Part shown: piece by piece, positions 877 through 1,245 of the stretch
Layout: every line of letters starts with the position of its first letter
Position numbering within the stretch: position 1 is the stretch's first letter
DNA from: Escherichia coli
Lineage (GTDB): Bacteria > Pseudomonadota > Gammaproteobacteria > Enterobacterales > Enterobacteriaceae
Direction: 5' to 3' (one strand)
Assembly (NCBI RefSeq): GCF_003334255.1
Contig: NZ_QOWU01000150.1
Length of the DNA: 1,766 bases
Notes under the pieces: generated by a model
The model's input: the letters and a program-made list of their open reading frames with translations, nothing else
What the model was told of the DNA's origin: nothing
The model's database searches: none
Translations under genes and position numbers: made by a program

Positions 877-1245
877 ATGGCAACAAAAGAAGAAAATCAG
901 AAACGTCTTCGTGAACTGGCTGGTCTGCTGGGGCGCGAGGCGGATATGTCGGGGAGTGCTGCGGATATCGCACAGCGTGTGGCAGAGTGGGAAGAGGAGG
1001 TTTGCGCCTCGGAAAATGAAATCGCAGATGTTGATGATACCGTTCATGAGCAGGCATGCAGGCACACCGGTGAGGATGACGTTGGTATTCTGGAACGTAT
1101 CAGGCTTCTGAAGTGTTTTTACCTGTGCGGTGTTGACGATGAAACAGGTGAGCCTGTTGAGCATGTTGATGCTGGCAGAGTAATTCTGATGCCCCCCTCA
1201 GTGGCAAAAGACATGGTCAGGAGCGGAATGGCCGTTTATGCGTGA
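877..1245 (+). CDS. FI: DNA-packaging / head-assembly protein, lambda gpFI-like (122 aa)
   Basis: ATG at 877 has a proper SD and gives MATKEENQKRLRELAGLLGRE..., which parallels the lambda gpFI N-terminus (MTKDEL-ARLRSLGEQL... AELKEE) as recalled. The C-terminal tail (VILMPPSVAKDMVRSGMAVYA) resembles the lambda FI C-terminus (FVLPGTAFRVSAGVAAEMTERGLA). The middle is acidic and divergent. Position between E and FII fits lambda synteny. Stop TGA at 1243-1245. The ORF-track start at 829 (GTG) has no RBS and would begin inside the hairpin, so 877 is preferred. Confidence 0.75.
   Translation: MATKEENQKRLRELAGLLGREADMSGSAADIAQRVAEWEEEVCASENEIADVDDTVHEQACRHTGEDDVGILERIRLLKCFYLCGVDDETGEPVEHVDAGRVILMPPSVAKDMVRSGMAVYA

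Follow-up and report, generated by a model that had tools for sequence, protein, structure and literature searches.

In a 1,766-nucleotide stretch of Escherichia coli prophage DNA (the window, by which we mean the whole stretch analyzed), the late genes FI and FII overlap by eight nucleotides out of frame, and comparison with related phages on balance favors a substantial contribution of termination-reinitiation coupling to FII initiation. The overlap at positions 1238–1245 had been proposed in an earlier note from the bare sequence; it is read directly in the DNA, and the coordinates in the open reading frame (ORF) list agree with it, as does the NCBI RefSeq annotation of the identical sequence in strain JE86-ST05 (FI, window 877–1245; FII, window 1238–1591). 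The features to which the text refers are as follows.

1–825, plus strand: 3′ end of the major capsid gene E, whose beginning lies outside the window; the identical E. coli record and phages PhiR5_1 and PhiR12_1 all annotate it as "major capsid protein".
833–861, plus strand: terminator-like element in the E–FI spacer from a scan for such sites, a G+C-rich hairpin (833–853) followed by seven T residues (855–861).
866–870, plus strand: GGGAG, Shine-Dalgarno (SD) sequence of FI, 6 nt before its ATG, from the sequence.
877–1245, plus strand: FI, putative DNA-packaging chaperone of 122 amino acids, stop TGA at 1243–1245, RefSeq CDS gpFI.
1219–1223, plus strand: AGGAG inside FI, 14 nt (1224–1237) before the FII ATG, from the sequence; specific to one FI allele.
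1225–1228, plus strand: GGAA, a minimal SD-like element 9–10 nt before the FII ATG, from junction alignments.
1238–1245, plus strand: ATGCGTGA, comprising the FII ATG (1238–1240) and the FI TGA (1243–1245), a −8 overlap, from the sequence, ORF list, and RefSeq.
1238–1591, plus strand: FII, head-tail joining (stopper) protein of 117 amino acids, from the ORF list and RefSeq.
1249–1251, plus strand: additional in-frame TGA for FI (UGA UUU UGA), lying two codons past the first as a back-up stop, from the sequence.
1606–1766, plus strand: 5′ portion of Z, encoding a tail completion protein; named "phage tail protein" in RefSeq and Z in PhiR5_1.

The window comes from the late operon of a lambdoid, phage-21-like E. 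coli prophage. It matched a chromosomal prophage at 100% in several complete E. coli genomes (e.g., JE86-ST05) and the induced phage PhiR5_1 at 95%, and near-full-length copies (at least 80% of the window covered) were present in 1,365 of 5,426 complete E. coli genomes, about a quarter. The RefSeq record identical to the window (JE86-ST05) carries a lambda-type late operon in the order terminase small and large subunits, W, portal, C protease, D, E, FI, FII, Z, U, V, G, T, H, M, and L. Junctions were scored across this whole late operon (NZ_AP022815.1 1214766–1228531, here L001), and 9 of 15 overlapped, by 29, 17, 4, 11, 8, 4, 20, 4, and 1 nt. Predicted pairing with the anti-SD, which here and below denotes a simple duplex calculation with the 16S sequence rather than a full initiation model, ranged across the operon from −3.3 kcal/mol for Z, which starts 14 nt downstream of the FII stop, to −11.6 kcal/mol for H. 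The U gene was observed to combine a −4 overlap with a weak and distant SD, resembling FII.

Both overlapping genes are recognizable by homology. FI matched phrog_92, "DNA packaging chaperone FI" (E = 1.4e-41, residues 1–121), and lambda FI by BLASTP (29% identity, E = 2e-09); none of the NCBIfam models matched it, nor did any entry in a PDB sequence search. These two similarities place it, as far as family matches can, with gpFI, and a chaperone role would be carried over from lambda FI, the only member for which it is known and which stimulates terminase-prohead DNA packaging (cited in PMC3224144). The SD of FI gave a best anti-SD duplex of −7.4 kcal/mol with a 5–6-nt spacer. FII is flanked by FI and Z, as part of a lambda-type late operon, and matched NCBIfam NF049848 (tail_join_FII; 53.2 bits against a cut-off of 25, E = 2.1e-14), phrog_82 (E = 5.9e-51), the solved structure of lambda gpFII (PDB 1k0h; E = 3.2e-52), and lambda gpFII itself, with 70% identity over residues 1–117 and no gaps.

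The FII start at 1238 is secure, and the overlap is hence real. Upstream, the FII frame contains a stop at 1187–1189, and between that stop and 1238 it has no ATG, GTG, or TTG, so that the start is not located further upstream; nor should it lie downstream of 1238, because homology to lambda gpFII begins at residue 1 (MRDFENSFDAA in the window and MADFDNLFDAA in lambda align from the first residue). That a start has been misassigned and no true overlap exists, or that the two genes are fused by programmed frameshifting at the overlap, was considered and is exceedingly improbable. A miscalled start was ruled out by the upstream in-frame stop, the missing earlier start codons, and the homology to gpFII over its full length, of which residues 4–117 are visible in the virion structure (PMC10721106). 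Since FII is read in the +1 frame with respect to FI, a +1 shift could in principle fuse the two, but no other support for such an event was found: by-eye reading around GCC GUU UAU GCG UGA revealed neither a slippery heptamer nor an RF2-like CUU-UGA context, on which grounds fusion was also ruled out, and relatives hold the two genes 10–11 nt apart with a stop in between.

Within the overlap, the FI stop TGA is formed by FII codons 2–3 (CGT GAT). The octamer ATGCGTGA, once ATGCATGA, was kept in all overlapping junctions surveyed (about 10 distinct junctions and three diverged FI alleles). The bare motif ATGNNTGA occurred once against 1.19 expected, i.e., at chance level, and its frequency was discarded as an argument; the significance of the overlap lies in its gene context and conservation, since it joins two verified genes, and not in a motif count. 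The central and C-terminal part of FI (window ∼960–1220, codons ∼30–115) is a divergent cassette with 41–73% nucleotide identity among phages sharing the overlap, flanked by regions (E, the FI 5′ end, and FII) with 90–100% identity in the phages compared. The right boundary of this cassette falls just upstream of the overlap, which sits on the conserved right flank, and at least three FI alleles, 41–73% identical over the ∼250 nt before it, carry the same FII junction. The second FI-frame TGA is missing from alleles reading ...cgtgattttcag; where it is present, a mutation removing the first TGA, or a ribosome reading through it, would extend FI by just two residues and turn the overlap into −14.

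The closest described counterpart is phage 21, in which ORF1 (FI) and gene 8 (FII) share the same octamer and the same −8 overlap (M81255.1 and OL657228.1), an FI ending in GMAVYA*, and an FII N terminus of the MRDF type, with FII 86% identical to that of the window. Phage 21 differs in the FI central and C-terminal cassette (41–70% nucleotide identity over window ∼1020–1200) and in lacking the AGGAG at −19 to −15. The overlap is already known, being annotated in two phage 21 records (the 8.1-kb head operon, M81255.1, and the full genome, OL657228.1) and by the NCBI pipeline for the present sequence.

The SD-like elements upstream of FII are weak or badly placed. The earlier note had regarded AGGAG as the only such element; its position and 14-nt spacer were as described, but the GGAA at 1225–1228 lies closer to the start. 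A spacing of 14 nt between AGGAG and ATG is beyond the usual optimum. Paired with the anti-SD, AGGAG gave −7.0 kcal/mol at an 11–14-nt spacer, and it was missing from the PhiR12_1-type and phage-21-type alleles; the commonest overlapping alleles, which lack it, reach −4.1 to −4.9 kcal/mol. GGAA is the only purine-rich element common to all overlapping alleles, and both phage 21 records mark a putative ribosome-binding site there, on the conserved GGA(A) about 10 nt upstream of the start. The rare codon AGG was uninformative as a sign of selection for AGGAG, as AGG accounts for 3 of 9 FI arginine codons and the other overlapping alleles lack the motif.

To place this junction among its relatives, sequences were taken from eight annotated reference-phage stretches and from 160 viral contigs that carry a relative of FII. 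FII starts were placed by homology, and junctions were scored in 167 loci, yielding 41 distinct junction sequences. Rows returned by the stop finder as "gap 40" or "None" were read as artifacts and by eye proved to be ordinary +11 and −8 junctions; for "None", the group's first locus was too short on its upstream side, and for "gap 40", the finder had probably picked an earlier stop in a different long open frame. Only two junction types were present among these 167 loci and 41 junctions, and no mixed types were seen. Type B, the −8 overlap, comprises the window, PhiR5_1, PhiR12_1, phage 21, and relatives of these; the FII N terminus is always MRDF, and the best anti-SD duplex is −4.1 to −7.0 kcal/mol at 5–11 nt. 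Type A, represented by lambda, N15, phi80, HK225, mEp237, and numerous metagenomic contigs, has a gap of 10–11 nt with GGGAGG, AGGGGG, or a similar run 1–4 nt before an ATG or GTG start, and its duplexes range from −5.8 to −11.7 kcal/mol, all but one junction being at −7.9 or stronger. The five named type A phages share with the window the order E-FI-FII-Z, a homologous FI, and an FII of 53–70% identity; they differ in the gap and in its GGGAGG or AGGGGG SD (−9.4 to −10.8 kcal/mol), which is absent from the window. FII of the window, unlike its type A orthologues, has no well-placed strong SD. This association of a weak SD with an overlap fits a shift toward termination-reinitiation coupling and is not proof of it; type B is probably a single FII lineage (MRDF), in which case the link between overlap and weak SD would represent one evolutionary event.

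Termination-reinitiation as a substantial contributor to FII initiation is the reading that we favor, if by no means strongly. The spacer that bears FII's own SD in lambda, N15, and phi80 is missing here, so that FI reads eight bases into FII; in the proposed sequence of events, ribosomes terminating FI at 1243–1245 would reinitiate on the AUG five bases upstream and thereby supply a substantial share of FII initiation. The remainder would arise de novo, aided by GGAA (−13 to −10) and, in this allele only, by AGGAG (−19 to −15). FII output would then be modest and capped by FI translation, which would suit a protein needed at six copies per virion. Scanning revealed no promoter-like or terminator-like site between FI and FII, and the two genes therefore appear to share a transcript. 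Coupled pairs are co-directional, lie on one transcript, and have stop and start within about −8 to +10 nt of each other (a range taken from PMC10666635), and the co-directional FI and FII are spaced at −8. This spacing is the third commonest both in E. coli and across prokaryotes, is compatible with termination-reinitiation, and is taken in the literature to predict it, while +10/11 forms a separate E. coli peak (PMC10666635, PMC12548453), which the type A gap matches exactly.

Comparison with established systems sets limits on this reading. The −8 (NTGNNTGA) class of co-directional pairs (Huber et al. 2023, PMC10666635; Brown and Wade 2025, PMC12548453) has the same spacing motif, phase, and single transcript, likewise in E. 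coli, but short spacings are enriched for subunits of one complex, which FI and FII are not, and coupling is here putative. In trpB-trpA and in the MS2 coat-lysis restart (cited in PMC10666635 and PMC12548453) the start similarly lies within a few nucleotides of the upstream stop; there coupling was established experimentally, whereas for FI/FII it is proposed from sequence context. Also counting against coupling, −8 overlaps reportedly reinitiate less efficiently than −4 or −1 overlaps (PMC10666635), and AGGAG, though badly spaced, is as strong at −7.0 kcal/mol as the SDs of FI, G, and L and may allow independent initiation. FI and FII are not complex partners, so the usual rationale for coupling is absent. 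The proposal of coupling in the earlier note is plausible, with the comparison of relatives pointing toward it; the AGGAG to which it appealed is confined to one allele, and the fixed FI:FII ratio it envisaged is unsupported. Full-text literature searches found no paper on FI-FII coupling. Sampson et al. (1988) are said to have dealt with translation rates of lambda late genes, and Liu et al. (2013) reportedly with ribosome profiling of lambda.

The principal alternative is that the overlap arose neutrally, through an indel or through compaction of the genome, and that FII initiates independently on its own weak site (AGGAG at 14 nt, GGAA at 9–10 nt, and a start region without unusual structure), which would suffice as few copies are needed; we hold this to be possible, if somewhat doubtful. 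FII forms a hexamer, at six copies per virion (PMC10721106), the unfolding cost of its start region is 12.3 kcal/mol (mid-range for the operon at 2.7–19.3 and below the 13.5–17.5 of the gap class), and its anti-SD duplex equals those of several neighboring genes; with overlaps at 9 of 15 operon junctions, compaction is general. However, the duplex owes its strength to AGGAG, which is spaced beyond the usual optimum and is not found in the commonest overlapping alleles, leaving these with just −4.1 to −4.9 kcal/mol. A neutral overlap is further disfavored by termination occurring 5 nt from the AUG, within the range of experimental reinitiation in E. coli (PMC10666635).

Coupling through RNA unfolding, in which the FII start would be buried in secondary structure opened solely by ribosomes translating FI, is very unlikely. 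The minimum-energy fold does pair AGGAG with UUCCU at 1254–1258 and places the AUG in a small hairpin, but the folds were no better than those of shuffled sequences (z = −0.11 over 120 nt and +0.32 over 60 nt). Opening the start region took an amount of energy that is unremarkable for the operon and does not exceed that of non-overlapping relatives, and AGGAG is unconserved among overlapping alleles. No stable structure sequestering the FII start was found in the 120-nt and 60-nt folds or by unfolding cost, and RNA structure was rejected as the coupling mechanism; for coupled pairs of the unfolding type a masking structure is proposed, whereas for FI/FII none is predicted.

The two junction types suggest how the overlap may have arisen. 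In both types the FI C terminus reads G-x-A followed by three residues and the stop (...GLARMQ* in lambda, ...GLAREV* in N15, and ...GMAVYA* in the window). Nearly all type A FII genes begin ATG/GTG GCT GAT, a few having ACT, TCT, or GTT as second codon, so that the out-of-frame TGA at which type B FI terminates is present in them already. Removal of 19 nt, namely the three terminal FI codons together with the stop and SD, from the lambda junction TAA-CGGGAGGCGCT-GTG (NC_001416, 7600/7612) gives ...GCC CGC TGT GGC TGA, an NTGNNTGA overlap, and type B thus looks like type A without its spacer and SD, an inference from the sequence. A bolder version for the phage-21 type holds that a 19-nt deletion took FII's own SD and that practically all FII translation now comes from ribosomes fresh from terminating on FI; we think this rather unlikely. 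If it were true, nonsense or knock-out mutations in FI would be strongly polar on the essential head-completion gene FII, and the overlap and the gap with SD would form a natural paired comparison of two ways of expressing the same gene.

The earlier note had further suggested that the overlap fixes the FI:FII ratio, a claim that found no support. The partners would be a non-virion chaperone and a six-copy stopper, and many relatives keep the genes apart. In the lambda virion gpFII is the hexameric stopper, and gpFI was not one of the proteins detected there (PMC10721106). A compilation of lambda interactions connects FI to A and E, and FII to W, and has no entry for an FI-FII pair; gpFII binds W at the portal, and the links of gpFI to A and E are genetic (PMC3224144). 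On this literature, FI and FII do not belong to one complex of fixed stoichiometry, a feature that is enriched among coupled pairs without defining them. The arrangement need not set a particular FI:FII ratio, and nothing suggests a tuned one.

FI/FII is a real but ordinary member of the −8 class, which matters little beyond good annotation and practical engineering and opens no new question. Constructs that delete or tag FI in this widespread type of prophage should retain its final ∼30 nt, and possible polarity on FII should be expected. The two junction types on the same conserved gene would provide a tidy natural test pair for the contribution of a −8 overlap to initiation.

Several further observations concern the operon context, outside the overlap. 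The hairpin in the E–FI spacer has the shape of a textbook intrinsic terminator within a late operon (fold −19.9 kcal/mol, z = −4.04 for 833–853). A putative rho-independent terminator is annotated at the equivalent E–FI position in N15 and HK225, and lambda has a hairpin there with a T tail poorer than that of the window. The element may attenuate transcription past the abundant capsid genes or may stabilize E mRNA; as a terminator, it would require Q antitermination for read-through. An Rfam scan of the whole window (E ≤ 1) returned only two chance-level snoRNA hits, far under gathering scores. G (9307–9738) and T (9765–10178) are annotated in L001 as two separate CDS. Lambda T is known only as a G–T fusion produced through a −1 frameshift, and the L001 annotation probably misses the frameshift product. 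Finally, window positions 1–40, within the capsid-gene fragment, matched perfectly over 40 nt at MT713136.1 250357–250396 (Aeromonas jumbo phage AP1), in an unannotated stretch close to the end of the 254-kb record, which is possibly an assembly or contamination artifact.
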